Below are positions 4,589 to 48,138 of a stretch of 64,000 bases of DNA, in pieces. Each line of letters begins with the position of its first letter. Positions within the stretch are counted from its first letter, which is position 1. Made by a program: the position numbers and the translations under genes. The notes under the pieces were generated by a model, which was not told where the DNA came from, searched no databases, and worked only from the letters and a program-made list of their open reading frames with translations. Source of the DNA: an uncultured Gammaproteobacteria bacterium. Lineage in GTDB: Bacteria; Patescibacteriota; Microgenomatia; CAZXEC01. The stretch lies in contig CAZXEC010000001.1 of NCBI GenBank assembly GCA_964639595.1, forward strand, positions 326,903 through 390,902, written 5' to 3'.

Positions 4589-4594
4589 GGATGA

Positions 4595-5473: not shown

Positions 5474-5480
5474 GAGGGTA

Positions 5481-10778: not shown

Positions 10779-10806
10779 TAATTTACAAGAAGAGCAGGTC
10801 AATACA

Positions 10807-13857: not shown

Positions 13858-14785
13858 GGAATTGTCTCAGTAATTGTCTCCTGAAGGTACTCGTATCATG
13901 GGGTACTAGCGGTGCGCTGGCTATTTCACCATCGTACTCGACGACAAATCGGGTCCATTCGTCAGCCGGCACTTCTCCATCTGGCCAAGCTAGCAGATCT
14001 TCAATTGGTACCGCCAGCATGACACTATTTTCTTTATGGTCAACAGCCTTTTTCCATGATTCAATCAGAACACTTGGGTCTGCTACTACTTCTGTGACAT
14101 GGATCCAGCAAGTATAGGCAAAGGGTTTTTCAGCGCCGATGGCCAGCAATCTGGTGGTGCCTGCTTTGGGCTCCAGACCAAACTCTTCCTTCAGACCTCG
14201 ATGAACCGTAGCAAAAGAACTGGCATCTTCAGGCTCCATTTGCTCCTCGAAGGAGAGAGAATATCTGCCTGGATGAAAATCTTGCCCTTGGGCCCGTAAG
14301 GAGATAATAACACTACGCTGGTATCGGTCGAAAATAGCTTCTTGGAATAGCACAATATTATGGGTAGAAATTCCCACCGGCACTTCTGTTTGCCTGAATC
14401 TGGTAATTTCTTCCCGGCTGCGCATATGCAAATCAGGGGCTGCCTGATCAATACCCCTGATGGTAAAGTAGTCGCTTATGCCCAGTGTAACTCTAAGATG
14501 ATCGGGTGTGGCGGCGATGCTTCTGACTGTGACTTTGGGGTCATTCCAGACATTGGGTCCTGTTCTTTCTTGGGTTTTGTTAAAAGCTTGGGCCAAACCC
14601 TGCCTCATCCATTCTGGCGCCTGGGCTACCAGTTCCGGGTGGCCGGAGACGGTCTTTGAATCTGGGCTTTGAAAAAATTCTACTTGTTCGGAAGATAAAC
14701 CCTGAGGCCAGGCAGCAATCTCGATGGTGGTGCCGATTTCCCTGAAAGGGTATTCCGGACGGTGACCTAAATCCTCTCTTGTCAT
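13841..14785 (-). CDS. Hypothetical protein, compositionally atypical (GC ~50%); possible degenerate Nudix box
   Basis: A 314 aa ORF fills an otherwise gene-free gap, with ATG at 14785 and a TATAAT -10 upstream on the minus strand. RGLKEEFGL resembles the Nudix REUxEExGU, but the preceding spacing is inexact. No other recognisable motifs. Confidence 0.45.
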   Translation of the reverse strand: MTREDLGHRPEYPFREIGTTIEIAAWPQGLSSEQVEFFQSPDSKTVSGHPELVAQAPEWMRQGLAQAFNKTQERTGPNVWNDPKVTVRSIAATPDHLRVTLGISDYFTIRGIDQAAPDLHMRSREEITRFRQTEVPVGISTHNIVLFQEAIFDRYQRSVIISLRAQGQDFHPGRYSLSFEEQMEPEDASSFATVHRGLKEEFGLEPKAGTTRLLAIGAEKPFAYTCWIHVTEVVADPSVLIESWKKAVDHKENSVMLAVPIEDLLAWPDGEVPADEWTRFVVEYDGEIASAPLVPHDTSTFRRQLLRQFLNSSS

Positions 14786-15912: not shown

Positions 15913-17070
15913 ATGAAGAATTTTAAAAAAATGAGGGTGGTGATTGCCACTCATGAGGCCACCACTGGCCCTGCCCATGATGTGAGAGATTTTCTCAAAG
16001 ATAAAGTAGCAGAGCTGTTATTTATTGCCCACCCGCTGTTGTTTATTCCGGCAAATTATAAAAGGAGTTCCTATTATGAAAAATACTTGCCGGGTAAACC
16101 GGTTAAAAGATCTCAAGCCAGACATTGGCAAGGGCCTGAAGTAATGCTGTATGTGAAGGATCTGATCTATACCATCTTTTGGACCATTCGCAACGGCGGT
16201 GCCGATATTTTTATCGGCTCCGGCAACTTGAGCGCTTTTGCCGGAGTGATCTTAAAAAAATTAAGAGTAGTTGACAAAGTGGTTTTTTATTGCATTGATT
16301 ATGTGCCGGAAAGATTTGCCAACCCGCATGTTAACCGGCTGTACCATTGGGTGGACAGGCTGGCTTGCGCCGGTGCTGATATAACTTGGAACTTATCTCC
16401 CCGGATGGCCGATGGTAGAAATAGCAGGTGGGAAAGATCTCTGGGCAGGCAAGTGACCTTACCGATCGGTGTTCATTTTAACCGGATTCATCGGCTGCCT
16501 TTGGATCAAATCCATCATGCGGAAATTGTTTATTTGGGGACTCTTTTGGAAAAACAAGGTGTGCAGTTGGTGATTGGAGCGTTAACTAAAATTGCCAGCC
16601 AGATCCCCAATTTACATTTTCTGGTGATTGGCTCCGGGCCGTATGAAGAGCAGCTCAAAGAATTAACCAAGCAAAAAGGAGTTGAAGCGCTGGTGACATT
16701 TGCCGGATATGTTGAAGATCACCAGCAGGTGGAAGAGATGATGGCCAGAGGAGCAGTGGCAGTGGCTCTTTACAACAAAGAAGTAGATCAATTCAGCTAT
16801 TACGCCGACCCCAGCAAGGTGAAAAATTATTTAGCGGCCGGCCTACCGGTTATCATTACCGATGTACCATATATTGCCCAGGAGATTGTCCAAAAAAAAG
16901 CCGGAATAATAGTAGAATACCAGGAAGAACAAATGGTTGATGCCATACTTGGCTTGTTGAAAGATCCCAGAGAGTTAGCAAAGTATCGGCAGAATGCTGT
17001 TAATTTTGCGCGAGATTTTGATTGGGATGTACTGTTGACGAAAGCATTTGCCGAGCTGGTAAAAAACTAA
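15913..17070 (+). CDS. Glycosyltransferase family 4 (GT-B fold)
   Basis: C-terminal GT4 pattern VIGSGPYEEQLKEL...FAGYV...E...AAGLPVIITD. Confidence 0.7.
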   Translation: MKNFKKMRVVIATHEATTGPAHDVRDFLKDKVAELLFIAHPLLFIPANYKRSSYYEKYLPGKPVKRSQARHWQGPEVMLYVKDLIYTIFWTIRNGGADIFIGSGNLSAFAGVILKKLRVVDKVVFYCIDYVPERFANPHVNRLYHWVDRLACAGADITWNLSPRMADGRNSRWERSLGRQVTLPIGVHFNRIHRLPLDQIHHAEIVYLGTLLEKQGVQLVIGALTKIASQIPNLHFLVIGSGPYEEQLKELTKQKGVEALVTFAGYVEDHQQVEEMMARGAVAVALYNKEVDQFSYYADPSKVKNYLAAGLPVIITDVPYIAQEIVQKKAGIIVEYQEEQMVDAILGLLKDPRELAKYRQNAVNFARDFDWDVLLTKAFAELVKN

Positions 17071-17078
17071 AAATAGAT

Positions 17079-17837
17079 ATGACAAAAAGTAAAAAATTAA
17101 GTTCTACAAAATATCAAACAACATCGCCAACAAAAACAAACCATAACTTCTATCAGCAGATAAGGGATCTCTATGCAATGATAAAGCAAGCCCCGGATAC
17201 TGCCAATCAGGAGCTTAATCAGGAACATATCAGCCTGGCGCAGGACTATCGCCGGAACTTTTATAGCTATTTTGGCGGACTGAAACACTTTAAAAATAAA
17301 AATGTTTTGGAAATTGGTTGCGGTTATGGGGGAGACAGCGCTCTCATTGCCGAAGTGGCTAAAAAAGTAGTCGGTACTGATCTTAACAAGGATCAACGTT
17401 GGGAAATTTGGCAGAAAACCAATATGATATTTGCCAAAGAAAATGCCCAGAGTTTGTCATTTGCCAGCCAGAGTTTTGATGTAGTTTGTGCCCGTGATGT
17501 TTTGCATCATGTCGATTACCCATCACTGGCTATCAAAGAGATGGGTCGGGTTGTCAAAAAAGGCGGCAAGATAATTATTATTGAAGCCAACAGATACAAC
17601 CCCATATTTTATTTACATTTAACATGTCTTTTAGGGCATGATCATTTTACCCAAAACAAATTTATGGAGTTGGTCAGAAATAATTTTGACCAAGTGGAAT
17701 TTTTCTTTGTAGAAAGTCACTTCTTACCGATCAGAAACAAAATCTTCAGGTGGTGGTGGAATAGTGTTTGGAGTCTGGCTAACTTATTTCTGCCATCTTT
17801 TCTAAAATCATATAATGTAGCAGTAGCAACCAGATGA
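17079..17837 (+). CDS. Class I SAM-dependent methyltransferase
   Basis: VLEIGCGYGGDS motif I and VKKGGKIIIIEAN. The start is moved to the ATG at 17079; the track ORF begins inside the upstream gene. Confidence 0.7.
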   Translation: MTKSKKLSSTKYQTTSPTKTNHNFYQQIRDLYAMIKQAPDTANQELNQEHISLAQDYRRNFYSYFGGLKHFKNKNVLEIGCGYGGDSALIAEVAKKVVGTDLNKDQRWEIWQKTNMIFAKENAQSLSFASQSFDVVCARDVLHHVDYPSLAIKEMGRVVKKGGKIIIIEANRYNPIFYLHLTCLLGHDHFTQNKFMELVRNNFDQVEFFFVESHFLPIRNKIFRWWWNSVWSLANLFLPSFLKSYNVAVATR

Positions 17838-19636
17838 AAAAGAAATCTCTTTATTGTTTATCGATCCATTCCGGCCATGTGGCAGGTGCGGCCCTGTCTT
17901 GTGACGGGAAAATAGTCCAGTGTGTGTCAGAGGAGCGTTTCAACTGGCAAAAAAACTACCTGGGTTATCCCCGGCAAAGTATTGACTACGTCCTCACAGC
18001 CGCCGGCATCACAGCCGCCGATCTTGACTTGGTAGTTTTGCCTTCCAGATATGGGGCGCCTATTGTTTCCACCCAAGAAGTGCAAGCACAAATGGCCCTA
18101 ATATTATGGTTGTATAGACCAATTAATATTATCAGGCAACTGTGGGGAATCCTAGTGTATTACCTGCCGCCTTTATCAGGTATTGGCCGCCTGTTGTACA
18201 GGGTGATGGCCTATACCTTGGGCAGATATACTGCCAGCAAGGAAAAAAGTGTGATTGCCAAGCATTTACATATTCCCCGGGAGAAAATTATAGAATTGGA
18301 GCATCATTTCTCTCATGCTGCCACAGCTTACCTGGGCTCCCCTTTAAATAAGCAAACAGCCTTAGTTTTTACTTTGGACGGGGAAGGTGACTTGCTTTGT
18401 TCCAGCGTCTCAGTTGCCGAAGGCGGCAAAATTTGCCGAATTGCTGCAACTCCCCGGGAATACTCTTTGGGCTGGATGTATTATTACGTCACTAAATATT
18501 TTGGGATGAAGCCCAATGAGCATGAATATAAAGTCATGGGTCTGGCTCCTTATGCTAAAGATCGCGATGTTCAAAAAGTGTATGACCAGATCAAGGATAT
18601 TATTTATCTGAATCCTAAAAATAAACTTACTTTCAAGGCGAAATTCCATATGCAGAATATGGAATATTTTTTGAGGAAAAAAGTTTTCTGGGCTCGGTTT
18701 GATAATCTGGCCGGAGCCATCCAAAAACTTTTGGAAGATCGGGTAGTGGAGTGGATCAAAGAAGGCATTGCCGCCACCGGTATATCGACGGTAATTTTAT
18801 CCGGCGGGGTCTTCATGAATGTAAAAGCTAATCAAAAAATTGCCGAACTTGACGAGGTGAAGAAGATTTTTATTTTTCCCTCTTGCGGTGATGAGTCGCT
18901 GGCAATAGGAGCATGTTATGTTGGGTATCAAAGGTTGATCAAGCAGCAGGGCAGACAAGCCGATATTTGCCCCATTTCCGACTTATATCTGGGGCCAAGT
19001 TATTCTAACGAGGAGATTGAAAGGTTTTTAAAAAAAGAAAATTATTTTGCTAAATATACGATTGATAAACTGGAGAAAATCGAGGAGAGGGTTGCCCAGC
19101 TGCTGGCTCAAGGCCAGGTGGTTGGCCGCCTGTCAGGTAGAATGGAATGGGGGGCAAGGGCTTTGGGTAACAGATCGCTGTTGGCAAATCCCCAGGATCC
19201 GGATGTGGTGATGGTCTTAAATGAGCAGATGAAAGATCGTGATTTTTGGATGCCTTTTACTCCATCTGTTTTGGACAGATGTGCCCGCAACTATATTAAA
19301 AATCCCAAAAAGATATCTGCCCCATATATGATTATGACTTTTGATACAACCAAACTTGGTAAAAAAGACTTAAAGGCTGCTATTCATCCATATGATTTTA
19401 CTTGCCGGCCGCAAGTTTTAGAAAAATCATGGAACGTGAAATATTATAGCCTTATTGAAGCTTTTGAGAAGTTAACCGGCATTGGGGCGGTTTTGAATAC
19501 TTCGTTTAACCTACATGGTTTGCCAATAGTTTTAGGTCCCAGAGAAGCCATGTATGTTTTTGAAAATTCCGGCCTGGAATTTTTAGCCATGGAAAACTTC
19601 TTGGTTCGTAAATCTAGCCCAACACATGCCGAATAA
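17834..19636 (+). CDS. Carbamoyltransferase (NodU/CmcH/TobZ family), divergent N-terminus
   Basis: A 600 aa protein with the HH metal motif EHHFSHAATAY, a Kae1/YgjD-like N-domain and a C-terminal ...LNTSFN... motif. The start overlaps the upstream stop as ATGA. Confidence 0.75.
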   Translation: MKKKSLYCLSIHSGHVAGAALSCDGKIVQCVSEERFNWQKNYLGYPRQSIDYVLTAAGITAADLDLVVLPSRYGAPIVSTQEVQAQMALILWLYRPINIIRQLWGILVYYLPPLSGIGRLLYRVMAYTLGRYTASKEKSVIAKHLHIPREKIIELEHHFSHAATAYLGSPLNKQTALVFTLDGEGDLLCSSVSVAEGGKICRIAATPREYSLGWMYYYVTKYFGMKPNEHEYKVMGLAPYAKDRDVQKVYDQIKDIIYLNPKNKLTFKAKFHMQNMEYFLRKKVFWARFDNLAGAIQKLLEDRVVEWIKEGIAATGISTVILSGGVFMNVKANQKIAELDEVKKIFIFPSCGDESLAIGACYVGYQRLIKQQGRQADICPISDLYLGPSYSNEEIERFLKKENYFAKYTIDKLEKIEERVAQLLAQGQVVGRLSGRMEWGARALGNRSLLANPQDPDVVMVLNEQMKDRDFWMPFTPSVLDRCARNYIKNPKKISAPYMIMTFDTTKLGKKDLKAAIHPYDFTCRPQVLEKSWNVKYYSLIEAFEKLTGIGAVLNTSFNLHGLPIVLGPREAMYVFENSGLEFLAMENFLVRKSSPTHAE

Positions 19637-20669
19637 TGTCGTGGTTTCTGTAATAATTATCAACTGGAACGGGCAAAAAGATTTGTCCGGCTGCTTGACC
19701 TCCTTGAAAAAAGTGAAAGATGTAGAATTTGAGGTAATACTGGTTGATAATGGATCGACTGACCAAAGCGCAAAAGTTGCCCAAAAAATATTCCCGGATG
19801 TTCATGTTATTCGCAATCAGCATAATTTAGGCTATGCGCCGGCCAATAATCAGGGGTTGGCTGGCGCCAGGGGTGAATTCATCCTGTTTTTGAATAATGA
19901 CACCAAGGTCACGGATGATTTTTTGAAGATATTAGTCAGTATTCTTAAAGCCGATCCAAAAATTGCCGCTGTTCAGCCTAAAATTTATCTAATGGGTCGG
20001 GGCCAGATGTTGGATGCGGTCGGATCATTTTTAACCTGGACCGGATTTTTGGACCACTTTGGCTATGAGAGGCGCGATGGGCCCCAATATGCAAAACCAA
20101 GGGAAATATTTAGCGCCAAGGGAGCCTGCATGTTATTTCGCAAATCGGTCCTTGACCAAATAGGGAATTTTGATAATTTATTTTTTGCCTATTTTGAAGA
20201 GACTGACTTATGTTGGAGAGCTTGGTTGGCAGGGTATAGGGTATCTTATGTTCCGCAAGCTGTCATCTATCATAAAGGAGGAGCAACCGCCCACCGCTTG
20301 CCAGAGGCCATCAGTTTATATCATTCATACAAAAATAGAATCAGGACATTTATTAAAAATTTTGCAGTTGTCAATCTGGTCAGGGTTTTATTTGTCCATA
20401 GTCTTATTTGTACTTTTTTAGTGTTGGCTCATCTTTTGATGGGCAGGACCAGTCAGGCATTAGCTATTGTCAGGGCATACTGGTGGAATATCACGGTTTT
20501 GTCAGATACTCTCCAGGAGAGAACTCGCGTCCAGGCCTTGAGGCAAGTTGGCGATAAGCAGTTGTTTGGTCCTTTAGTCAGGCACAAAGGACTGGTACAA
20601 TATCTTAAAGAAGTTTATTTTTCTTTCTTTATTGCGCCAAAAATCAGGCAGGAAAAAATGGGATGGTAA
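19626..20669 (+). CDS. Glycosyltransferase family 2 (rhamnosyltransferase-like)
   Basis: VSVIIINWNGQKDL..VILVDNGSTD, NNDT, and a C-terminal hydrophobic region. Confidence 0.75.
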   Translation: MPNNVVVSVIIINWNGQKDLSGCLTSLKKVKDVEFEVILVDNGSTDQSAKVAQKIFPDVHVIRNQHNLGYAPANNQGLAGARGEFILFLNNDTKVTDDFLKILVSILKADPKIAAVQPKIYLMGRGQMLDAVGSFLTWTGFLDHFGYERRDGPQYAKPREIFSAKGACMLFRKSVLDQIGNFDNLFFAYFEETDLCWRAWLAGYRVSYVPQAVIYHKGGATAHRLPEAISLYHSYKNRIRTFIKNFAVVNLVRVLFVHSLICTFLVLAHLLMGRTSQALAIVRAYWWNITVLSDTLQERTRVQALRQVGDKQLFGPLVRHKGLVQYLKEVYFSFFIAPKIRQEKMGW

Positions 20670-20670
20670 A

Positions 20671-21810
20671 ATGAGGATTGGACTTGTTACCCACAATTAT
20701 CCAAGCGGCTTGCATGACCGCCAAAACGCCGGCATTTTTGTCCATGATTTGGCGCAGGCTTTAAAAAAAGGCGGACATGAAGTATTTGTATTGTGCCCTG
20801 ACAATGGGCGCCAAAAGCAGCCAGATAAAGTGCCGGTGACCTGGTTTTCTTGGAAAGGGCAGAGTAAAAAATTAGGAGATTTATCATTAAAAAATCCCAG
20901 TGACTGGGTTTATTTTTTTGATCTTTTTAGACAGGGGATAAAGAACATGACTCCGTTTATTAAAGATAATAAAATTGATTTTTGTGTAGCGATGTGGGCA
21001 TTCCCGGCCGGAGTTTTTTGCTACTTTGCCAAACGGAAATTAAAAGTGCCATATCTGACTTGGTGTTTGGGTTCAGATATCTATGTCTATGCCAAACTAC
21101 CAATTTTGAAACAGTTGATTGTCAAGATCCTTAAAAGTTCATCAGCGGTTTTTGCCGACGGCATAGATTTGGCCCAAACAACACAAAATTTATTTTCAGG
21201 TGTTTGCCAGTTTGTCCCATCTGCCACCAAATTACCAAACATGCCAGATCACCAAGCCGAATTTAGACATCCAAGCGCTTTGCATCTGATGTTTTTAGGC
21301 AGGATGGAACCTGTTAAAGGACCAGACGTGTTGATAGATGCAGCCTGCCTGATAAAAGATTTAGATTTTGAACTTCATTTGATGGGAGAAGGTGCACTGC
21401 TTGGTGCTCTTGAGCAACAAGTCACAACTTTTGGCCTGGCGGATAAGGTGATTTTCCATGGTAATGTAGCCGATCCTGCCAAAATCGAAGCTTATCTTAG
21501 CTCTGCTGATTGGTTGATAATCCCTTCCCGCTCTGATAGTATTCCTTTAGCCTTTTCCGAGGCTGCCAAAAATGGCACTCCTTTGCTGGTGGCTGCAGTT
21601 GGCGATATGGCCCAGTTAGTTAGACAATACCAAGTTGGTTTGACTTTTGGCAAAGGAGATGTCAAACAGTTAGCCAAACTACTTAGGGATATTATTAAAA
21701 ATAGGGGCAAAAGGGCCATATATGCAGCTAACACTCCCAAAGTATCCCTGTTGTTTAATATTGATACATCAGCCAAAAAATTGGCTGAAGAGGCAGAAAA
21801 ATGGTTATGA
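20671..21810 (+). CDS. Glycosyltransferase family 4/1 (GT-B fold)
   Basis: MRIGLVTHNYP..., and the C-terminal region FLGRMEPVKG...E..AAKNGTPLL. The start is set at the internal ATG just after the upstream stop. Confidence 0.65.
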   Translation: MRIGLVTHNYPSGLHDRQNAGIFVHDLAQALKKGGHEVFVLCPDNGRQKQPDKVPVTWFSWKGQSKKLGDLSLKNPSDWVYFFDLFRQGIKNMTPFIKDNKIDFCVAMWAFPAGVFCYFAKRKLKVPYLTWCLGSDIYVYAKLPILKQLIVKILKSSSAVFADGIDLAQTTQNLFSGVCQFVPSATKLPNMPDHQAEFRHPSALHLMFLGRMEPVKGPDVLIDAACLIKDLDFELHLMGEGALLGALEQQVTTFGLADKVIFHGNVADPAKIEAYLSSADWLIIPSRSDSIPLAFSEAAKNGTPLLVAAVGDMAQLVRQYQVGLTFGKGDVKQLAKLLRDIIKNRGKRAIYAANTPKVSLLFNIDTSAKKLAEEAEKWL

Positions 21811-23228
21811 ATAAAAGAAAAATTATTATTGTCGGGGCCGGTGTAGCTGGAGTGGAGTTGTATGATGAATTAAAAAGGCGGCCATCATTAGGATATGAGG
21901 TGGTTGGTTTTGTTGACGATGATCCCAAAAAACAAGGCAAAAAAATCAAAGGCTTACCACTGCTGGGTAACATCAGACAACTAGCGTCGATTGTTCATCA
22001 ATATAAGATTGAAGAGGTCTTGATTGCCATCCCATCTGCACAGGGGAGCCAAATCAGGGAAATTGTCACCCAGTGTCAAAATGCCCAGGTAATTTTTAGG
22101 ATTGTCCCCAGGATTTTGGAAATCATCCAAGGTAAAGTGCATATTGGGCAAGTCAGGCCGGTCAACGTGGAAGATCTCTTGGGTCGGGCCTTAAGACAGC
22201 ATGAACAAGCCCAAATTGCACCACTGATTAGAGGCAAAACAGTTTTAGTCACCGGCGCTGCCGGCTCAATTGGCTCGGAGCTATGCCGACAAATCCTCCA
22301 GTTTAACCCCAAAAAACTGATCATGGTGGATTGGTGGGAAAATGGTTTGTTTGAACTGGATCGGGAATTTTCCCAGAGCGCTTCTCACATCAGTCGTGAA
22401 TCAATTATCGCCAATATCCAAGACCTGCCGAAAGTTAATTGGATTTTTGGCAAGTTCCGGCCGCAAATTGTTTTTCATGCGGCAGCATTTAAACATGTAC
22501 CTTTGATGGAGCTGCATCCGGAGGAAGCTGTCAAAAACAACATTTGGGGAACCCAAGTTTGTGCACGGATAGCCGGGGAGCATAAAGTTGATAAATTTGT
22601 ATTTATTTCTACTGATAAAGCAGTCAACCCAGAGAGTGTAATGGGGGCAAGCAAATTGTTTGCTGAATTGATAGTAAGAGAATTGGGCCGAAAATATAGC
22701 ACCAAGTATATTACGGTCAGATTTGGCAATGTCCTGGGCAGTTATGGGTCAGTAGTTCCCATTTTTACCAAACAAATTGCCCGGGGCGGCCCTGTGACTG
22801 TAACTAATGCGGATATGGTCAGGTATTTTATGACGATAACCGAAGCAGCGCAATTGGTCTTACAATCAGCCCAACTGGGCAAGGGATCAGAAGTGTTTAT
22901 ACTGGACATGGGCGAGCCGGTCAGAATTTTGGAACTGGCTCGTTTGATGATCAGATTGGCTGGCTTTCAGCCAGATGATGAGATCCCAATAAAAATTATC
23001 GGCCGGCGTCCGGGCGAGAAATTAGTGGAAGAGCTTTTAACCGACCAGGAAAACGCCGCCAAAACCACCAATGACTATATTTTCATCTCCACCAATGGTA
23101 TAAATATTGATGATGGGGTGCTCTGGCACAGCTTTGACCGCTTAAAGAAATTATCTGATGCCCTAAACCGGCCAGGCATTTTAAAAGAACTGGGAGCGAT
23201 CTTGCCGGTGTTTAAGAAAAAACCATGA
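21801..23228 (+). CDS. Nucleotide-sugar 4,6-dehydratase of the PglF/CapD/WbpM family, with no TM segment
   Basis: N-terminal Rossmann-like IIIVGAGVAG, then a second SDR domain with GKTVLVTGAAGSIGSEL and ...STDKAVNP... The 475 aa length matches the soluble portion of PglF-type enzymes. Confidence 0.75.
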   Translation: MVMNKRKIIIVGAGVAGVELYDELKRRPSLGYEVVGFVDDDPKKQGKKIKGLPLLGNIRQLASIVHQYKIEEVLIAIPSAQGSQIREIVTQCQNAQVIFRIVPRILEIIQGKVHIGQVRPVNVEDLLGRALRQHEQAQIAPLIRGKTVLVTGAAGSIGSELCRQILQFNPKKLIMVDWWENGLFELDREFSQSASHISRESIIANIQDLPKVNWIFGKFRPQIVFHAAAFKHVPLMELHPEEAVKNNIWGTQVCARIAGEHKVDKFVFISTDKAVNPESVMGASKLFAELIVRELGRKYSTKYITVRFGNVLGSYGSVVPIFTKQIARGGPVTVTNADMVRYFMTITEAAQLVLQSAQLGKGSEVFILDMGEPVRILELARLMIRLAGFQPDDEIPIKIIGRRPGEKLVEELLTDQENAAKTTNDYIFISTNGINIDDGVLWHSFDRLKKLSDALNRPGILKELGAILPVFKKKP

Positions 23229-24310
23229 CTAAAAATATTCCATTTGCCAAACCGGGTATCACTCAAAAAGAAATCAGTGCAGTGACCCGCGTTCTCAAAG
23301 GCGGTTGGCTGACTATGGCTGATGAGACAGCCACTTTTGAAAAAGAATTTGCCAAATATGTTGGCGCCGGCCATGCCATTGCGGTCAACAGCTGCACCAG
23401 CGGTTTATTTCTGTCGCTTCTATCGCAAGGCGTGGGGCCTGGCGATGAAGTGATTGTGCCATCTTTTACTTTTGCCGCCTGTGCAAATGTAATAGTCCAT
23501 TGCGGGGCAACTCCGGTATTTGTAGATGTCCTGCCCAATGGTTTTACCATTGATCCGGATGATGTAAAGCGCAAGCAAACTAACAGAACTAAAGCAGTGA
23601 TGCCGGTCCATTATGGCGGAAATTGTGCTGCGACAAACTTTGATATTACCACCATTGAAGACAGTGCCCACAAAATTACTAAAAACTATCACTCTAAAAA
23701 CATCGTCTGCTATTCATTTTATGCCACCAAAAATTTAACGACCGGCGAAGGCGGGATGATTACTTGTGAAGATGATCGCGTTGCCGAGTGGCTGACTAAA
23801 GCCAGGCTTCATGGTCTGTCACATGACGCCTGGAAGCGTTATCTGCCGGGCAACAAATGGCATTATGAAGTTGAATTTGCCGGATACAAAACCAATACCA
23901 TTGATATGCTATCTGCCATGGGTCGCGTGCAATTGTCGCGGCTGGATCAGATGGAAGAACAGAGGCGAAACATTGTGACTTATTACAATAAATTACTAGG
24001 CCTCACCAACAAAGGCACCCACCTCTATCCCATTTTAGTAGAAAAAAGGGATGAGTTTATGGATTATATGAAAGACAATGACATTGGCTGTTCTTTCCAT
24101 TTCCTGCCACTGCACCAAACACCGGCCTATAAAGGCTACAAAACTCCCAGCTTGCCTGTAACAGAATTTATAGGCTATAGAGTAGTTACACTACCACTGC
24201 ACTCCACCTTATCTCTCAAGAACATAGAGTATGTCTGCCAAAAAGTATTACAATTTGGTAAATTTCAAAATGACCGATTTAGCTTATCCGTTTTGAGAGC
24301 TAAGCTATGA
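23225..24310 (+). CDS. DegT/DnrJ/EryC1/StrS-family PLP-dependent sugar aminotransferase
   Basis: N-terminal FAKPGITQKE..., with the PLP-lysine in SFYATKNLTTGEGG. Confidence 0.8.
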   Translation: MTKNIPFAKPGITQKEISAVTRVLKGGWLTMADETATFEKEFAKYVGAGHAIAVNSCTSGLFLSLLSQGVGPGDEVIVPSFTFAACANVIVHCGATPVFVDVLPNGFTIDPDDVKRKQTNRTKAVMPVHYGGNCAATNFDITTIEDSAHKITKNYHSKNIVCYSFYATKNLTTGEGGMITCEDDRVAEWLTKARLHGLSHDAWKRYLPGNKWHYEVEFAGYKTNTIDMLSAMGRVQLSRLDQMEEQRRNIVTYYNKLLGLTNKGTHLYPILVEKRDEFMDYMKDNDIGCSFHFLPLHQTPAYKGYKTPSLPVTEFIGYRVVTLPLHSTLSLKNIEYVCQKVLQFGKFQNDRFSLSVLRAKL

Positions 24311-25407
24311 AATACATTCCTGTCGCTGAACCATTCTTAGGTAAGGAAGAAGAGAAGTTGGTTTTAGAGGGTTTAAGGTCAGGTTGGATTTCTTCAATTG
24401 GTAAATATATCCCACAATTTGAGGAAGAATTTGCCAGATATTGTGGCGTTCGCTATGGCGTGACTTGTTCTAATGGAACTACTGCCCTGCATTTGGCTTT
24501 GGTTGCCTGTGATGTTGGACCGGGCGACGAAGTGATTGTGCCGTCGATGACCTTTGTGGCAACTGCCAACGCTGTTGTCTATACCGGAGCAAAACCAGTC
24601 TTGATTGATTCCGAACCAGATACTTGGAATATTGACCCGGAAAAAATTAAAGAGAAAATCACCAGGAGGACCAGAGCTATCATTCCCGTACATCTTTATG
24701 GGCATCCTGCTGATATGGGGCCGATTCTCTCAATTGCCCGGAAATACGGCCTTACGGTAATAGAAGATGCCGCAGAGGCCCACGGTGCCATGTACAAACA
24801 GAAAATGGTGGGATCTTTGAGTGATATGGCTTGCTTTTCCTTCTTCGGTAATAAAATTATCACTACCGGTGAAGGCGGAATGCTCATCACCAATAACAAA
24901 GCTCTGGCAGAAAAAGCCAAAATGCTCCGTGATCACGGTGTTTCCAAAAAAAGACGTTATTATCATCCTCATCTGGGATACAATTACAGAATGACCAATC
25001 TGCAGGCAGCATTGGGTTTGGCGCAGCTGGCAAAAATAGACAAAATTATTGCCGCCAAAAGGCAGCTTGCCCAAAAATACCAACAGTTTTTGTCGCCCGT
25101 TGCCCATAAGCTTGTTTTGCATCCGGAAGCCAAATGGGCTAAGAACGTTTTTTGGATGTACTCTGTCTTAGTTAAGCCAAGAAAGAATATCACCCGTGAT
25201 CGACTAGCCAAATATCTTAAAAGAGCTGGTATAGATTCACGACCATTCTTTTTCCCCATTCATAAACTAGCCAGATATAAGGTTGATGAGAGATTACCGG
25301 TGGCTGATTTTTTAGCAAGTGCTGGTTTAAATTTACCATCCAGTGTTAATCTGACAGAAGAACAAATAAAATACATCAGCCATAAGATTATCCAATTTTT
25401 AGGCTAG
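24307..25407 (+). CDS. DegT/DnrJ/EryC1/StrS-family PLP-dependent sugar aminotransferase (second copy)
   Basis: PLP-lysine in FSFFGNKIITTGEGG; ATGA overlap with the upstream gene. Confidence 0.8.
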   Translation: MKYIPVAEPFLGKEEEKLVLEGLRSGWISSIGKYIPQFEEEFARYCGVRYGVTCSNGTTALHLALVACDVGPGDEVIVPSMTFVATANAVVYTGAKPVLIDSEPDTWNIDPEKIKEKITRRTRAIIPVHLYGHPADMGPILSIARKYGLTVIEDAAEAHGAMYKQKMVGSLSDMACFSFFGNKIITTGEGGMLITNNKALAEKAKMLRDHGVSKKRRYYHPHLGYNYRMTNLQAALGLAQLAKIDKIIAAKRQLAQKYQQFLSPVAHKLVLHPEAKWAKNVFWMYSVLVKPRKNITRDRLAKYLKRAGIDSRPFFFPIHKLARYKVDERLPVADFLASAGLNLPSSVNLTEEQIKYISHKIIQFLG

Positions 25408-25424
25408 CAAAATCATCTTGCTTT

Positions 25425-26615
25425 ATGGACAGTCAGGTTAATGATGATTCTTCCCAAACAGTAAATCCTGCCAAAAAAGTGTTGCTAGTTATACTGGGAA
25501 TTTTACTAGCTGTTGTTATTGGTGAATTATCACTTCGTTTTATATATTTTTTGGCCGATAGGCAAATTCTAGGCTTACATCCACTCAAGAACACTATTGG
25601 CTGGCAAGATGATAAGAGGATTGGCAGAAGACTCCTCCCCAACCAGCAAGGATGGTTCGTCACCCCCACACAGGAATATTATACTTGGGTGACTGTCAAC
25701 TCCCAAGGCTGGAGGGATTCAGAACATCAATTTAATAAAGAGGATAAGGTTTTCAGGATAATACTGATAGGTGATTCTTTTGTGGAAAATTTCCAAGTCC
25801 CCCTAGCAGAGACTTTTTTTAAAATCGTCGAAAAAGAGATTAATTTAGCAAATCCTGGCCCAAAAGTAGAAATTATTGCCTTAGGTTTGGGAGATACAGG
25901 CACAGCCCAACAATTGCAGATTATAGAAAAGTACGCCAGCTTGTATCAGCCTGATTTGGTTGTTCAGCTTTTCTATATGGGCAATGATGTCAAGAATAAT
26001 TCGGCCAAACTGCAAGGCGATCCGCACCGTTTATATTTTAAATTACAAGATGGTCAACTTCAGGTAATACCTTTTACTACCAGGAGTAGTTTACTTCCGC
26101 AACGCCTACTGTCATTTGTCAAAAATAATTCAAATTTGGTTGAGTGGTTGCTTGATCAAAAAGGCCGGATTTTTACCAAGATTGATGCCTATCCTATTGA
26201 TTACCAGGTGTATAGCATAAGCTATTCTGACGAATTTCAGCAAGCCTGGGAAGTAACCAAAGCATTAATTAAAGAAGCCAGAAATCAGGTGGCAAATCAA
26301 GGTGCAGATTATTGGCTGGTGGCAATTCCTGCTCAAGAGCAGGTAGATAGGCAGTTTTGGCAAGACGCCATCTCTTTCTATCCCAAGGTGCAAAAAGCTG
26401 ATTTTGATCTTGCCAAGCCAGATAAAATCTTGAAGGAATTTTGCTCACAGGAAAATCTTAGCTGCTTATTCACAGCTGATATTTTTAAAGAAAAATTTGC
26501 TCAAAATAACCAACGGCTTTTTTACAAGCAAGATGGCCATTGGAACAGTAGCGGCAGCAGACTCATGGCAGATATTTTAATTAGCAATTTGAAAGACTAT
26601 TTCTCCAGCAGATAA
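25425..26615 (+). CDS. Membrane-anchored SGNH/GDSL-family hydrolase (AlgX/AlgJ-like candidate O-acyl esterase or transferase)
   Basis: N-terminal TM helix, GDSF block I (ILIGDSFVEN), and a DxxH block V (QDGHWN) near the C-terminus. Confidence 0.6.
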   Translation: MDSQVNDDSSQTVNPAKKVLLVILGILLAVVIGELSLRFIYFLADRQILGLHPLKNTIGWQDDKRIGRRLLPNQQGWFVTPTQEYYTWVTVNSQGWRDSEHQFNKEDKVFRIILIGDSFVENFQVPLAETFFKIVEKEINLANPGPKVEIIALGLGDTGTAQQLQIIEKYASLYQPDLVVQLFYMGNDVKNNSAKLQGDPHRLYFKLQDGQLQVIPFTTRSSLLPQRLLSFVKNNSNLVEWLLDQKGRIFTKIDAYPIDYQVYSISYSDEFQQAWEVTKALIKEARNQVANQGADYWLVAIPAQEQVDRQFWQDAISFYPKVQKADFDLAKPDKILKEFCSQENLSCLFTADIFKEKFAQNNQRLFYKQDGHWNSSGSRLMADILISNLKDYFSSR

Positions 26616-28303
26616 TTTTCCAAAACTAGCGCATCCAGACGGCTTTTGGTAAAAGTATCAAAAGCTTCACCGTAGGTGTTGACTATCGGCTCGCCTTTAA
26701 GATTGAAGGAAGTATTCAGAAGAACAGGGGTGCCGGTGGCCTGCCCGAACTTATTAACCAGTCTCCAGTAGCAGGGGTTGATATTTTTTTTGATAAATTG
26801 CGGCCTGGCTGTGCCGTCAACATGGGTGATCGCACCCAGCTGGGATCTTTTTTCCGGCTTGACCGGCACTACTGCCAGCATATATTCAACCAGTGATGGG
26901 GGATTTTGGCCTGTTTCAAAATAGTCGTGACCTTTCTCATTGATAACCACTGGCGCAAACGGCCGGAAACCTTCACGAAATTTTATTTTAGAGTTGACCA
27001 GCTCCTTCATTTTTTTGTCGCGAGGATCAGCCAAAATGCTGCGTGCTCCCAGCGCTCTGGGGCCCCATTCAAAACGACCCTTAACCCAACCGACGACCTT
27101 TTTATCAGTCAGCAGGTCAACCAGTCGATCTTCCAAGTTATCATCACTTAAAAATGTAGCTTTAATATTGTTTGAATCAATAAATTTTTTGATGTCTGCC
27201 AAATTGTTTTGTTGTCCCCAATAACAATGGTTTTGGACAAAAACCCTCTTGTGGCCTAGGATGTGATGGTAAACATATAAAGCTGCTCCCAAGGCGCCTC
27301 CTGAATCGCCGGCAGCAGGCTGAATAAAAATGTTGGCAAAACCAGCCTCTTGGAAAATTTTCCAGTTGGCCACCCCATTTAGGGCAACTCCACCAGCATA
27401 GCACAAGTTTTGCTCGCCAGTTTGCTGCTTGACGTATTTGGCAATTGCCAGCAGTTTTTCCTCCAGCACCTTCTGAACACTGGCGGCAATATTGGCATAA
27501 GCGGGAATTATTTGGTCGCTTTTTTCGCTTTGTTGAGGCGGGATGCCCAGTAGTCTGACCAATCTATCACTGAAAGCCAGTTTATCTGATTTGTAGTAAT
27601 CAAAATAAGATAAATCAATCTGGAATGATCCGTCGTTTGTCTGTGTTATTAATTTATTAATTTTATCATAGTATTCAGGCCGACCATAAGGAGCTAGTCC
27701 CATCACTTTATATTCACCTTCATTCACTTCAAATCCCAAATATTGGGTAAAAGCACTGTAAAAAAGTCCCAGAGAGTAAGGGAATTTGATTTCCCAATCC
27801 AGAGATAATTTGTTATCATGCGCCCTGCCAAATGAAGTAGTAGTCCATTCTCCCACGCCGTCGCAGGTTAACAGGGCGGCGCTGTCAAAGCCGGAAGCAT
27901 AATAGGCGCTGGCTGCGTGTGAGAGATGGTGACCGCAAAAAAGAATTTGCTGATCGGATATTTTTAGCTTTTTTATAATTTGTGATTTGATCCAAAGTTT
28001 GTTTTTCAGCCAGGTGGTATAAGTATTGATAAAAGTTTGTCGAGCCGATGGAGCTAGTGCTAAAGCTGATAGTGTAATCCTTTCAAATTTGATAAATGGT
28101 TTCTCGTAAAATACCACCCAATCAATATTTGGAGATGTTATGTTGGCAGTTTTCAAACAAAAGTCAATTGCGCATGAGGGAAAGCCGGAGTCATGTTTTT
28201 TTCTGGTAAATCTTTCTTCTTCAGCAGCTGCCAGCAATTGGCCATCCTTGAGAATGACAGCTGCGGCATCATGGTAATAACAGGAGATTCCTAAAATGGT
28301 CAT
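26597..28303 (-). CDS. Carbamoyltransferase (NodU/CmcH family), canonical
   Basis: ILGISCYYHDAAAVIL N-terminus, GHHLSHAASAY, and the C-terminal LLNTSFNLKGEPIV. Confidence 0.85.
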   Translation of the reverse strand: MTILGISCYYHDAAAVILKDGQLLAAAEEERFTRKKHDSGFPSCAIDFCLKTANITSPNIDWVVFYEKPFIKFERITLSALALAPSARQTFINTYTTWLKNKLWIKSQIIKKLKISDQQILFCGHHLSHAASAYYASGFDSAALLTCDGVGEWTTTSFGRAHDNKLSLDWEIKFPYSLGLFYSAFTQYLGFEVNEGEYKVMGLAPYGRPEYYDKINKLITQTNDGSFQIDLSYFDYYKSDKLAFSDRLVRLLGIPPQQSEKSDQIIPAYANIAASVQKVLEEKLLAIAKYVKQQTGEQNLCYAGGVALNGVANWKIFQEAGFANIFIQPAAGDSGGALGAALYVYHHILGHKRVFVQNHCYWGQQNNLADIKKFIDSNNIKATFLSDDNLEDRLVDLLTDKKVVGWVKGRFEWGPRALGARSILADPRDKKMKELVNSKIKFREGFRPFAPVVINEKGHDYFETGQNPPSLVEYMLAVVPVKPEKRSQLGAITHVDGTARPQFIKKNINPCYWRLVNKFGQATGTPVLLNTSFNLKGEPIVNTYGEAFDTFTKSRLDALVLENYLLEK

Positions 28304-28626
28304 CCTTGCCTTAATGCCTCATCAGCGGAGTCTGCCTTGATAGTAGTTTTTTGCCAAAAAGGAGATTTTTTTTGACAGAAGGGATCTGCCAAAGCTCGAT
28401 AAACGGTTCCAGTTATAGTAAAAAGCGTTAAATAAAAAATAGAAAAGATGATCATTATTTGGATATTCCCAATTACCTCGGCAATTCTTTTCCAGCTGGT
28501 GATAATTTTTTTCATAGCTGTAGTTAGAATAATGGATAGATCAATGGTGCCAAGGGGGACGATCCCACGCTGACCATCAGTAGCCCGATTAAAATCAACA
28601 CGCTCAACAAGGGGATCAGCCACCAT
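28300..28626 (-). CDS. Small hypothetical membrane protein; the start may be the internal Met at 28515
   Basis: One or two hydrophobic helices. The stop overlaps the carbamoyltransferase start as ATGA on the minus strand. No motif support. Confidence 0.3.
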   Translation of the reverse strand: MVADPLVERVDFNRATDGQRGIVPLGTIDLSIILTTAMKKIITSWKRIAEVIGNIQIMIIFSIFYLTLFTITGTVYRALADPFCQKKSPFWQKTTIKADSADEALRQG

Positions 28627-28723
28627 AATTTGCGCCTACACAAAAACTGCAATAATTCTTTTAAAATATTAATATGGGACATGTTAATATACTAGACGCT
28701 TATCTGGTCGCTTGCAACAGTTA

Positions 28724-42233: not shown

Positions 42234-42315
42234 GTTAGGAGAATTATAGCATAGAGATGTTTTGCAGGTTTGAAAAATGTTAGCTGTGATGGTAGATTAG
42301 GTGATAGCTACTAGG

Positions 42316-48105: not shown

Positions 48106-48138
48106 CCATGTTGGATGTATTAATTGACCATAGAAAAT

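Follow-up and report, generated by a model that had tools for sequence, protein, structure and literature searches.

Two predicted class III carbamoyltransferases of separate clades in a CPR glycan-assembly island

Members of the carbamoyltransferase family act on amines and nucleobases as well as on secondary metabolites. The solved O-carbamoyltransferases TobZ (the tobramycin 6''-O-carbamoyltransferase), GdmN, NovN and VtdB each combine a Kae1-like with a YrdC-like domain and share a His2Asp2 metal site, a general-base histidine and the residues R418/K443/S530 (TobZ numbering). NodU and NolO, the Nod-factor O-carbamoyltransferases, share their Pfam family with these enzymes, and their acceptor is an oligosaccharide. 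In the saxitoxin (sxt) clusters of cyanobacteria, sxtI, sxtJ, sxtK and sxtL are consecutive genes. In Pseudomonas aeruginosa, the putative carbamoyltransferase WapO (PA5005) is linked, together with CarB, to carbamoylation of the LPS core (PMC13552734).

The window analyzed here, a 64-kb stretch (64,000 nucleotides) of a Candidatus Daviesbacteria (CPR) genome, encodes two proteins of this family, CT-A and CT-B (Table 1). A preliminary description had reported two NodU/CmcH-type carbamoyltransferases on opposite strands of a surface-glycan locus, one canonical and the other divergent. Its coordinates, strands and quoted motifs proved exact, and its surface-glycan locus was borne out in that glycan-assembly genes make up the whole 64 kb around the two genes.

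Table 1 Features of the window that bear on CT-A and CT-B
Feature	Position	Strand	Remarks	Evidence
GT4 glycosyltransferase	15913..17070	+	directly upstream part of CT-A operon	Pfam
Class I SAM methyltransferase	17079 (probable ATG start)..17837	+	directly upstream of CT-A	Pfam
CT-A, class III carbamoyltransferase, A-type clade	17834..19636	+	600 aa	ORF, Pfam, residue mapping, AF2, Foldseek
GT2	19626..20669	+		Pfam
GT4	20632..21810	+		Pfam
PglF-like 4,6-dehydratase	21801..23228	+		Pfam
DegT-type aminotransferase	23225..24310	+		Pfam
DegT-type aminotransferase	24307..25407	+		Pfam
Membrane-anchored SGNH/GDSL (AlgX-like) protein	25425..26615	+	396 aa	Pfam ALGX; NCBIfam LA_2486
CT-B, class III carbamoyltransferase, SxtI-like B-type clade	26597..28303	-	568 aa	ORF, Pfam, PDB matches, residue table, clade profile
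SxtJ-like membrane protein	28300..28515	-	71 aa, one TM helix	sequence reading, iterative profile search, hhalign
DUF5989 small membrane protein	28524..28682	-	52 aa, one TM helix	ORF; Pfam PF19451
PMT_2-type GT-C glycosyltransferase	28724..30328	-	534 aa	Pfam PMT/PMT_2
GNAT acetyltransferase	32681..33274		within island	

Family membership, catalytic residues and fold

Both proteins matched the carbamoyltransferase models of Pfam end to end, with values for Carbam_trans_N (PF02543) and Carbam_trans_C (PF16861) of 2e-43 and 2.3e-56 for CT-A and of 1.4e-81 and 2.1e-67 for CT-B. Among the solved O-carbamoyltransferases, CT-B matched NovN (1.8e-92), GdmN (1.6e-91) and TobZ (6e-77), and CT-A matched TobZ (3.4e-56) and VtdB (7xb6; 1.6e-54). 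These family matches far exceed chance. The two proteins are 31% identical to one another over their full length (E 8e-78). In the ORF translations CT-A carries CLSIHSGHVAGAAL and EHHFSHAATAY, the HH motif already credited to it, and CT-B carries ILGISCYYHDAAA and GHHLSHAASAY. By these matches, CT-A and CT-B are full-length members of the class III (TobZ/NodU/CmcH-type) carbamoyltransferase family, each with a Kae1-like and a YrdC-like domain. NCBI already lists both proteins. The label NodU/CmcH-type is apt for the class III family but not in the sense of NodU orthology, as the NCBIfam NodU equivalog aligned with the C-terminal part only and gave 85 bits for CT-A and 140 bits for CT-B against a cut-off of 1000.

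Residue roles were taken from the TobZ and GdmN positions described in PMC9633730. Mapped in this way, the predicted general base of CT-A is H15, its metal ligands are H157, H161, D182 and D353, and R442, K467 and S557 would form the carbamoyl-phosphate/ATP site. The corresponding predictions for CT-B are H11 (in an HD motif), H125, H129, D148 and D333, together with R416, K441, S532 and Y66, the equivalent of GdmN Y82. All 29 catalytic or near-catalytic positions checked are retained in both proteins, including H14, H114, H118, D137, D338, R418, K443, M473 and S530 in TobZ numbering and H27, H133, H137, D156 and D333 in GdmN numbering. Across 120 A-type and 119 B-type homologues there is no variation at the core catalytic and ligand positions, and the other checked positions are close to invariant. 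The preliminary description had proposed an alignment to TobZ and had named the loss of catalytic residues from one copy as grounds for rejecting it. In that alignment the general-base histidine, the metal site and the R418/K443/S530 set were intact in both copies, with no catalytic residue lost from either.

In the AF2 model of CT-A (pLDDT 87.3, pTM 0.87), the N-domain is Kae1-like, with a long helical hairpin at about residues 88-145, and the C-domain is YrdC-like. Foldseek superimposed the model on VtdB, TobZ, GdmN and NovN with TM scores of 0.77-0.81. Neither CT-A nor CT-B would appear to be a pseudo-enzyme.

Gene neighborhoods and clades of the two enzymes

CT-A begins within the stop of the methyltransferase gene (ATGA) and runs 11 nt into the GT2 gene at its other end, an arrangement that predicts translational coupling of CT-A to the methyltransferase and glycosyltransferase genes. 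The upstream GT4 and methyltransferase form a single fusion protein in relatives (631 aa in locus L088 and 632 aa in locus L087). A 23-bp indel was examined at this gene pair. The A-type genes of L001, L002, L003 and L008 likewise have a GT4 homologue upstream, and GT4/GT2 neighbors of A-type genes were found in other phyla. Downstream of CT-A, the stretch of GT2, GT4, dehydratase and aminotransferase genes is found with identical synteny in L088. The amino or deoxy sugars that these genes are predicted to produce and transfer are candidate acceptors.

CT-B is the last gene of a minus-strand unit that begins with the PMT-like gene and continues through the DUF5989 and SxtJ-like genes, the stop of the latter overlapping the CT-B start (ATGA). 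The DUF5989 protein matched PF19451 with E 2.4e-17 (63.2 bits, cut-off 27); its family consists of small ORFs found in company with SxtJ and SxtI-like carbamoyltransferases. The SxtJ-like protein of 71 residues gave no match in a direct Pfam/NCBIfam scan. It is the counterpart of the C-terminal half of SxtJ family proteins, its long relatives carry the name 'SxtJ family membrane protein' (PF19588), and hhalign aligned the short CPR forms with database SxtJ proteins at a probability of 96% (E 4.2e-9, template columns 71-139 of 141). A 108-residue ORF (28300..28626) in the mechanical listing is this gene with an artefactual extension at its N-terminus. Orthologues of 70 residues were called in L083 and L084, and in L084, a locus of a complete Daviesbacteria genome, the order DUF5989, 70-residue protein, carbamoyltransferase is repeated. 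The SGNH gene is convergent with CT-B, the 3' ends overlapping by 19 nt, and is syntenic in L088. Its product matched Pfam ALGX (3.4e-9, 37.2 bits, cut-off 26.5) and, below the cut-off, the SGNH/GDSL model LA_2486 of NCBIfam (7.6e-10). The TM segment spans residues 12-45, and the homologues keep Ser118 (21/21), Asn187/Asp188 (18/21) and His372 (20/21).

Beside 20 strong B-type genes, an iterative profile search found the SxtJ-like protein in every case; a DUF5989 gene lies beside 16 of them and an SGNH gene within 4 kb of 13. The corresponding figures beside 63 A-type genes are 1 for small membrane ORFs and 4 for the SGNH protein. CT-B belongs to an SxtI/J/K/L-like cassette that the preliminary description had missed. 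The fourth member, the SGNH protein, recurs with B-type carbamoyltransferases and can be compared to SxtL, a GDSL lipase.

The two clades are bimodal by profile score (A-type genes 490-990 versus 220-350, B-type genes 580-1118 versus 316-402), and CT-B scored 1030 bits with the subB profile versus 388 with subA. A-type proteins are widespread, with members in CPR, DPANN, Omnitrophota, Rokubacteria and other groups, and their conservation between phyla (36-59% identity) implies purifying selection. Sequence comparison shows CT-A to be a typical member of an old, uncharacterized, multi-phylum clade rather than a degenerate copy, and places CT-A and CT-B in two old, separate branches of the family. 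Hence the contrast of a canonical and a divergent copy survives in that CT-A is the more divergent, but not as the local divergence of a duplicate. Similarly, the 'divergent N-terminus' is in part the A-type norm, in which GH-N/T/L replaces YHD. Among 28 clade-discriminating columns are E184/D186 (GdmN pocket loop 2) and M225/H230 (loop 3), and A-type proteins have about 32 extra residues ahead of HHxxH, folded into a helical hairpin where GdmN has its helix 1. As these fixed differences sit in predicted acceptor-pocket elements, they fit a different acceptor for CT-A, in keeping with the shifted substrate suggested for it.

Two copies in one locus had been called unusual. Most A-type loci are indeed without a second carbamoyltransferase within 10 kb, but the word overstates the case, as pairs or triplets recur in unrelated lineages (CPR, Woesearchaeota, Nanoarchaeia, Acidobacteria, Nitrospira). 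The pair in this island is a plausible, if fairly ordinary, sign of surface sugars carbamoylated at two different positions.

Proposed function and alternative readings

We favor, with a probability of roughly 0.6, the reading that both proteins are active ATP- and carbamoyl-phosphate-dependent class III enzymes that modify different acceptor positions on the glycan of the island. If the mechanism of TobZ and GdmN applies, the YrdC-like C-domain would bind carbamoyl phosphate and ATP to form carbamoyl-AMP, which would then be handed to the Kae1-like N-domain. There the His2Asp2-bound metal and the general base (H15 or H11) would activate the nucleophilic group of the acceptor, most probably the hydroxyl of a sugar, for attack on the carbamoyl carbon. 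It is the gene context that points to sugar O-carbamoylation, and either a hydroxyl or an amine may be the acceptor. CT-A would act within its operon of glycosyltransferase, methyltransferase, dehydratase and aminotransferase genes by means of a remodeled acceptor pocket. CT-B would work with, or at least be co-inherited with, DUF5989, the truncated SxtJ and the SGNH protein, and, as two of these partners are small membrane proteins and the third is membrane-anchored, it may, more speculatively, act at the membrane, in which case its target would probably be a nascent glycan or one linked to a lipid. The 64-kb window has no gene for a source of carbamoyl phosphate (CarAB, carbamate kinase or OTCase), and, CPR genomes being metabolically reduced, supply of the donor is presumed.

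An amine acceptor would make one or both enzymes N-carbamoyltransferases that convert the amino group of an amino sugar, the product of the adjacent PglF-like dehydratase and two DegT enzymes, to a ureido group. The CT-A operon has the dehydratase and two aminotransferases with no adjoining hexapeptide/PglD-type N-acetyltransferase, and the A-type gene of L087 has DegT aminotransferase and dehydratase genes directly after it. TsaD, of the same superfamily, acts on adenine N6 and offers an N-carbamoylating precedent. A lysine-to-homocitrulline carbamoyltransferase, described in PMC13174530, offers another. However, every matching solved relative is an O-carbamoyltransferase, the island has a GNAT acetyltransferase, and the sequences hold nothing that separates O- from N-acceptors; we consider this reading unlikely. 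Slightly less probable still is that the CT-B cassette is a self-contained module acting on a lipid or small metabolite and merely co-located with the glycan genes. The cassette lies on the strand opposite to the CT-A operon and occurs in many phyla, also in the saxitoxin cluster with its alkaloid acceptor. Against this, in all five CPR loci examined (the window, L083, L084, L085/86 and L088) it lies amid genes for GT2, methyltransferase and PMT_2-type GT-C enzymes, four of the five have a PMT_2-like GT-C gene directly next to it (besides the window, PMT_2/TMEM260-like genes flank B-type genes in L083, L084 and L088), and secondary-metabolite genes are absent from the 64-kb window.

Single carbamoylation would result if one copy, most plausibly CT-A, were catalytically dead or had a non-carbamoyl activity. 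CT-A is annotated as a 'hypothetical protein' in NCBI, its Pfam and PDB scores are below those of CT-B, and V16 replaces the residue after the catalytic histidine that is mostly N in its own clade and D in the B clade, TobZ and GdmN. We nevertheless give this little credence, given metal, base and carbamoyl-phosphate/ATP-site residues that are all kept and invariant over 120 clade members, a confident full-length TobZ-like model and the purifying selection on the clade. The preliminary description had also named Kae1/TsaD paralogy as fatal to its reading, and weak sub-threshold matches to TsaD and HypF models, together with a phage family member that carbamoylates 5hmC (PMC8670742), could be taken to indicate tRNA t6A or nucleic-acid carbamoyltransferases. 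The TsaD models, however, scored about 20 bits where their cut-offs are 208-296, both proteins have a fused YrdC-like C-domain, and the CT-A model fits TsaD/Kae1 over the N-domain only (TM about 0.37, versus about 0.8 for the O-carbamoyltransferases). The phage enzyme is equally far from both clades (122 and 102 bits), and the 64-kb window has no thymidylate-synthase-like hydroxymethylase. We regard this last alternative as effectively refuted.

Comparison with known systems

The solved TobZ-type enzymes have secondary-metabolite acceptors, whereas the CT-A and CT-B genes lie in a glycan island. CT-A is only about 25% identical to them by Foldseek and differs in its hairpin, about 32 residues longer, and in other pocket-loop residues; CT-B is closer, as its NovN match indicates. 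GdmN and NovN have 680-700 residues and a C-terminal dimerization domain, which the shorter CT-A and CT-B lack. NodU acts on an oligosaccharide but is not orthologous to either protein.

The cyanobacterial SxtI-SxtJ-SxtK-SxtL set comprises the same four gene types as CT-B with its DUF5989, SxtJ-like and SGNH/GDSL neighbors, a likeness that for the DUF5989 gene presumes SxtK to be a DUF5989 protein. Other sxt genes are absent. SxtJ has about 130-140 residues, whereas the CPR form retains the C-terminal half only, and order and strand also differ, the small genes lying upstream of CT-B and the SGNH gene being convergent. P. aeruginosa has CarAB, whereas the window has no such source. By description, WapO resembles CT-A and CT-B in that its gene lies in a surface-glycan operon and its proposed role is to decorate a sugar with the use of carbamoyl phosphate (PMC13552734).

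Two class III carbamoyltransferases

The preliminary description placed two carbamoyltransferases on opposite strands, and both open reading frames have exactly the boundaries listed in the table, CT-A on the plus strand and CT-B on the minus strand. Each matched the Pfam domains Carbam_trans_N (PF02543) and Carbam_trans_C (PF16861) with scores far above the gathering cut-offs, CT-A covering profile positions 10-345 of 346 and 1-170 of 170, and CT-B positions 2-346 of 346 and 2-170 of 170. The proteins are 31% identical over their full length. A search of PDB sequences matched both to the solved O-carbamoyltransferases TobZ, GdmN, NovN and VtdB, the best match being NovN for CT-B (1.8e-92, with GdmN likewise around 1e-92) and TobZ for CT-A (3.4e-56); all the solved, characterised enzymes score nearer CT-B than CT-A. 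CT-A and CT-B add to a known enzyme kind and neither is new to the databases: identical proteins are in NCBI from a 458-kb contig of a Candidatus Daviesbacteria MAG, where CT-B is named 'carbamoyltransferase'. CT-A is named only 'hypothetical protein HY388_00915' and its database homologues are labelled 'carbamoyltransferase C-terminal domain-containing protein'. The annotation models under-recognise the N-domain of the CT-A clade (A-type) despite its full-length PF02543 match.

Positions of the features discussed in the window
Feature	Positions	Strand	Remarks
CT-A	17834..19636	+	600 aa; A-type clade
CT-B	26597..28303	-	568 aa; B-type clade
SGNH/AlgX-like protein	25425..26615	+	396 aa; ALGX 37.2 bits (cut-off 26.5)
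SxtJ-like protein	28300..28515	-	71 aa, single-pass membrane; stop overlaps CT-B start (ATGA)
DUF5989 protein	28524..28682	-	52 aa, single-pass membrane; PF19451 63.2 bits (cut-off 27)
PMT_2-type GT-C	2933..4588		551 aa; weak match
PMT_2-type GT-C	7876..10029
PMT_2-type GT-C	10807..12996
PMT_2-type GT-C	28724..30328
PMT_2-type GT-C	61978..63444
Class I methyltransferase	4595..5473	-
Orn/DAP/Arg-decarboxylase family	5481..6791	-	PLP-dependent
Discoidin protein	34865..37600	+	~900 aa
Discoidin protein	37597..40455	+	~900 aa
Discoidin protein	42301..44988	+	~900 aa
Large protein	45077..48046		no Pfam match
AftD-like GT-C	48124..51267
Large protein	51767..54439		no Pfam match
ORF	13841..14785	-	no Pfam match at E<=1e-4
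ORF	41772..42233	-	no Pfam match at E<=1e-4
ORF	57319..58710	+	no Pfam match at E<=1e-4
ORF	59737..61179	+	no Pfam match at E<=1e-4

Catalytic residues were mapped on an alignment of 120 CT-A-type and 119 CT-B-type homologues. TobZ numbering in the PDB matches is offset by 6, as confirmed with the S530A variant (3VF4) and via W408, G421 and R423 (PMC8670742). The iron ligands of GdmN are H133, H137, D156 and D333 and its general base is H27; Y82 is also listed (PMC9633730). The His2Asp2 metal site (TobZ H114/H118/D137/D338) corresponds to CT-A H157/H161/D182/D353 and CT-B H125/H129/D148/D333, and is invariant in both homologue sets. The general-base histidine (TobZ H14) is CT-A H15, kept in 119 of 120 A-type homologues, and CT-B H11, kept in all 119 B-type homologues. 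At the carbamoyl-phosphate/ATP site the counterparts of TobZ R418/K443/S530 are R442/K467/S557 in CT-A and R416/K441/S532 in CT-B, and these, like CT-A M499 and CT-B M475, are invariant or nearly so within their clades. Both proteins carry the GxRALGxRS and NTSFN motifs of the YrdC domain, and in the PDB match CT-B Y66 aligns with GdmN Y82. The AlphaFold2 model of CT-A (pLDDT 87.3, pTM 0.87) superposed over its full length on VtdB, TobZ, GdmN and NovN with TM scores of 0.77-0.81 (Foldseek; entries 7xb6, 3ven, 7vx0 and 9s2t).

As the catalytic residues are kept, CT-A has a TobZ-like fold and the scores on TsaD, HypF and NodU models are low, both proteins are by family bona fide class III carbamoyltransferases, of predicted activity, and neither is a pseudo-enzyme, a TsaD paralogue or a NodU orthologue. 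The preliminary description held that loss of the catalytic residues from one copy, or assignment of both to the Kae1/TsaD tRNA-modification paralogues, would overturn it. All mapped residues are present in both copies, and their full conservation rules out CT-A as a pseudo-enzyme. Kae1/TsaD paralogy is ruled out by the fused YrdC-like domain, by the NCBIfam scores (18-20 bits on TIGR00329 and TIGR03723, with cut-offs of 208-296, and about 20 bits on the HypF models, with cut-offs above 200) and by fold coverage, TsaD/Kae1 structures matching only the N-domain of the CT-A model (TM about 0.37). On the NodU equivalog model NF041651 CT-A scored 84.9 bits and CT-B 139.9 bits, both below the cut-off of 1000. 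A recent duplication, which would make one gene a young copy of the other, is ruled out by the 31% identity and by the placement of the proteins in separate clades with bimodal profile scores. CT-A shares the motifs GHN, RD..MPF and NTSFN.HG.PI with the phage 5hmC carbamoyltransferase and hence a specific kinship was considered; this is ruled out, as the phage enzyme is about 26% identical to CT-A and CT-B alike and scores 122 bits on the A-type profile and 102 bits on the B-type profile.

TobZ and GdmN form carbamoyl-AMP and then transfer the carbamoyl group. By homology, the YrdC-like domain of each of the two enzymes would convert ATP and carbamoyl phosphate to carbamoyl-AMP, and the Kae1-like domain would carry out transfer via its metal centre and the general-base histidine.

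A-type and B-type clades

The preliminary description contrasted a canonical copy with a divergent one. CT-A does differ, but it is not a degenerate copy: the two proteins belong to two old clades, called here A-type and B-type. Scanning of species-representative genomes with the CT-A-type alignment gave relatives of 36-50% identity in CPR, Pacearchaeota and Woesearchaeota (DPANN), Omnitrophota, Rokubacteria, Gammaproteobacteria, Acidobacteria, Planctomycetes, Nitrosopumilaceae and others, and the clade is enriched in CPR/DPANN glycan loci. Clade profiles were built from the two homologue sets and scored on the carbamoyltransferase genes of all fetched comparison loci (L numbers below). A-type genes reached 490-990 bits with the A profile, against 220-350 with the B profile; for B-type genes the values were 580-1118 bits (B profile) and 316-402 (A profile). 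Genes that fit neither clade are a minority and include haloarchaeal genes, two genes in L057 and one of 574 aa in L001. Such third-type genes occur in some CPR/DPANN glycan loci without SxtJ or DUF5989 partners.

At 28 alignment columns the clades differ although each is at least 90% fixed, and several of these columns fall in the acceptor-pocket elements defined for GdmN. E184 and D186 (DxEGD in A-type, DGVGE in B-type) lie in pocket loop 2, and M225 and H230 in loop 3. In loop 1, the position after the general base holds D in 119 of 119 B-type proteins, N (mostly), T or L in A-type proteins, and V16 in CT-A. A-type proteins also have about 32 extra residues before the HHxxH motif (median 156 versus 124); in the CT-A model these build an extended hairpin of two helices (H88-110 and H112-145) where GdmN has pocket helix 1. 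The surroundings of the carbamoyl-phosphate/ATP site supply further discriminating features: R432 (aligned with TobZ W408), H561 (A) versus K536 (B), GARALG (A) versus GPRALG (B) and RDFWMPF (A) versus REGFRPF (B). Conserved chemistry together with a remodelled acceptor pocket supports the suggestion, made at the outset, that CT-A may have a shifted substrate, although the shift itself is something we infer. No characterised member of the A-type clade was found. An A-type product may be, for example, a carbamoylated nucleotide-activated or lipid-linked amino or deoxy sugar, possibly giving a ureido sugar.

The view that two such genes in one locus are unusual held in part. The arrangement is a minority one, a second carbamoyltransferase lying within 10 kb in only a few of about 60 A-type loci from species representatives. 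However, it recurs in Acidobacteria, Nanoarchaeia, Nitrospira, Woesearchaeota and CPR, and thus is not a singular oddity. A+B pairs are found in L045 (Acidobacteria), L059 (Nanoarchaeia) and L073 (Nitrospira); L057, from a Woesearchaeota MAG, packs three carbamoyltransferase genes into 14 kb (4139..5824, 9995..11704 and 16039..17724), and L001 (CPR) has a tandem pair at 8271..9995 and 10001..11773, in which a third-type gene accompanies an A-type one. In Microgenomates, A and B matches apparently share a contig in at least five cases, as contigs of equal length suggest.

The CT-B partner set

Two small genes lie upstream of CT-B. A 108-aa ORF (28300..28626, minus strand) is an artefact: it overlaps the DUF5989 gene in another frame and extends the real 71-aa SxtJ-like gene. 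L085 and L086 show the same over-call, annotated there as a 111-aa gene. When every ORF of the fetched loci was searched with an iterated profile, relatives of the 71-aa protein turned up next to B-type carbamoyltransferases in many phyla; those of CPR have 70 aa, and those elsewhere 130-150 aa with extra N-terminal helices. A database search with the SxtJ-like alignment returned 'SxtJ family membrane protein' (PF19588), and an independent profile-profile comparison of four short CPR forms with 18 database SxtJ proteins gave a 96% probability (E 4.2e-9) over the C-terminal half of SxtJ only. As direct scans of the 71-aa ORF against Pfam and NCBIfam gave no match and the profile-profile match is confined to that half, we call the protein a putative truncated SxtJ-like relative and not a full-length SxtJ member. 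The SGNH protein gene is convergent with CT-B, the two overlapping by 19 nt; its product is anchored in the membrane by its N-terminus, and the catalytic Ser118, Asn187/Asp188 and His372 are conserved.

Partners were counted within 3-4 kb of each gene, for 20 strong B-type and 63 A-type genes. An SxtJ-like gene accompanied all 20 of the B-type genes and 1 of the A-type genes, a DUF5989 gene 16 and 1, respectively, and an SGNH gene 13 and 4. The sole A-type gene with both small ORFs, that of L073, adjoins a B cassette, and CT-A has no DUF5989 or SxtJ-like gene within 3 kb. In L002 the A-type gene has a DUF5989 gene some 10 kb downstream. The order DUF5989, 70-aa ORF, carbamoyltransferase is also found in a complete Daviesbacteria genome (L084). 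CT-B is accordingly assigned to the SxtI-like clade and has that clade's partner set. SxtK we take to be a DUF5989 protein, and the SxtJ/SxtK(DUF5989)/GDSL partnership marks one clade only. The literature library searched contained no paper on DUF5989 or on PDB entries 7XB6 and 8HIU.

As the partners are membrane-anchored and strictly co-inherited with B-type enzymes, we speculate that CT-B acts at the membrane. The partner set may couple cytoplasmic carbamoyl activation to glycan modification or later trimming at or beyond the membrane, and the CPR version, with its half-length SxtJ, may be a minimal form of this device. The joint reading, that A-type enzymes are a new acceptor class and, separately, that the DUF5989, SxtJ and SGNH partners of B-type enzymes form a membrane device, is improbable as a whole, at roughly 15%.

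The glycan island, acceptor and carbamoyl donor

A Pfam scan of every ORF of at least 150 aa showed the window to be one large glycan island with GT2 and GT4 glycosyltransferases, an AftD-like GT-C, a Wzx-type flippase, sugar genes (UDP-sugar dehydrogenase, epimerases, dehydratases, a PglF-like dehydratase and two DegT aminotransferases), about 10 class I methyltransferases and one GNAT. Scans for tRNAs and Rfam families were both empty, and the window has an ordinary base composition. Synteny is complete in the nearest relative, L088 (89% and 88% identity). CT-A lies in a plus-strand operon with the order GT4, methyltransferase, CT-A, GT2, GT4, PglF-like, DegT, DegT, SGNH. At either end it is translationally coupled to its neighbour: the start overlaps the methyltransferase stop (ATGA) and the 3' end overlaps the GT2 start by 11 nt. 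The order in the minus-strand CT-B unit is PMT-like, DUF5989, SxtJ-like, CT-B. GT4 and GT2 homologues also adjoin A-type genes in other CPR and in Omnitrophota.

The GT4 and SAM methyltransferase are a single fusion of about 631 aa in L088 (8109..10004) and L087 (5056..6954). A frameshift or pseudogene at the corresponding window junction (17022..17090) is ruled out, as a 23-bp insertion at about 17067 gives a clean TAA stop (17068-17070) and a new ATG (17079), leaving two intact genes; the TTG at 17022 listed for the methyltransferase is probably not its real start.

Several other features of the island recur. Five genes encode PMT_2-type GT-C proteins (ArnT/PMT-like), and a PMT_2/TMEM260-like gene directly adjoins the B-type cassette in the window and in CPR loci L083, L084 and L088. 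Between the 551-aa ORF with the weak PMT_2 match and the 550-565-aa proteins without Pfam matches encoded after the A-type genes of L001 and L002, tblastn gave no match, and their homology was rejected. Three paralogous F5/8-type-C (discoidin) proteins, the domain being C-terminal and their only Pfam match, adjoin large proteins without Pfam matches and the AftD-like GT-C; similar proteins lie near other CPR carbamoyltransferase loci (L002 725..3322, L084 548..2638 and L085 2177..4249). The adjoining decarboxylase-family and methyltransferase genes, a pair that recurs in CPR locus L001 (327..2385), hint at an amino-acid-derived or polyamine-like glycan substituent.

The operon structure points to a glycan as the putative acceptor of CT-A and CT-B and, as amino-sugar genes adjoin, an N-carbamoyl (ureido) product is possible alongside an O-carbamoyl one. 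Should both enzymes prove active, this ultrasmall CPR bacterium would bear carbamoyl groups at two positions on its envelope glycans or glycoproteins. Such a decoration is cheap and uncharged, forms hydrogen bonds and could influence attachment to a host or recognition by phages. A metabolically reduced cell would then be investing ATP and carbamoyl phosphate in its surface, and it becomes a question where the carbamoyl phosphate originates. The Pfam scan found no source of it among window ORFs of at least 150 aa. An OTCase-fold gene (PF02729 plus PF00185) lies at 3327..4259 of L002, inside a CPR glycan cluster with an A-type carbamoyltransferase, and could either supply carbamoyl phosphate locally or be a further consumer of it; the window has no comparable gene. 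Some CPR (Saccharibacteria) are reported to have an arginine deiminase system (PMC8764695).

Carbamoyltransferases in a glycan locus will not surprise a specialist. What is added here is the resolution of an A-type enzyme with a remodelled pocket from an SxtI-like B-type enzyme with its cassette, and the corrected small genes upstream of CT-B. Two large uncharacterised clades are thereby separated within a biotechnologically useful enzyme family, and a partner set confined to one of them gives a clean comparative handle on the roles of the small membrane proteins. This clade-specific SxtJ/DUF5989/SGNH association and donor supply in CPR are reasonable leads. For glycan carbamoylation by CT-A and CT-B the precedent, itself proposed, is WapO with CarB in carbamoylation of the P. 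aeruginosa LPS core (PMC13552734).
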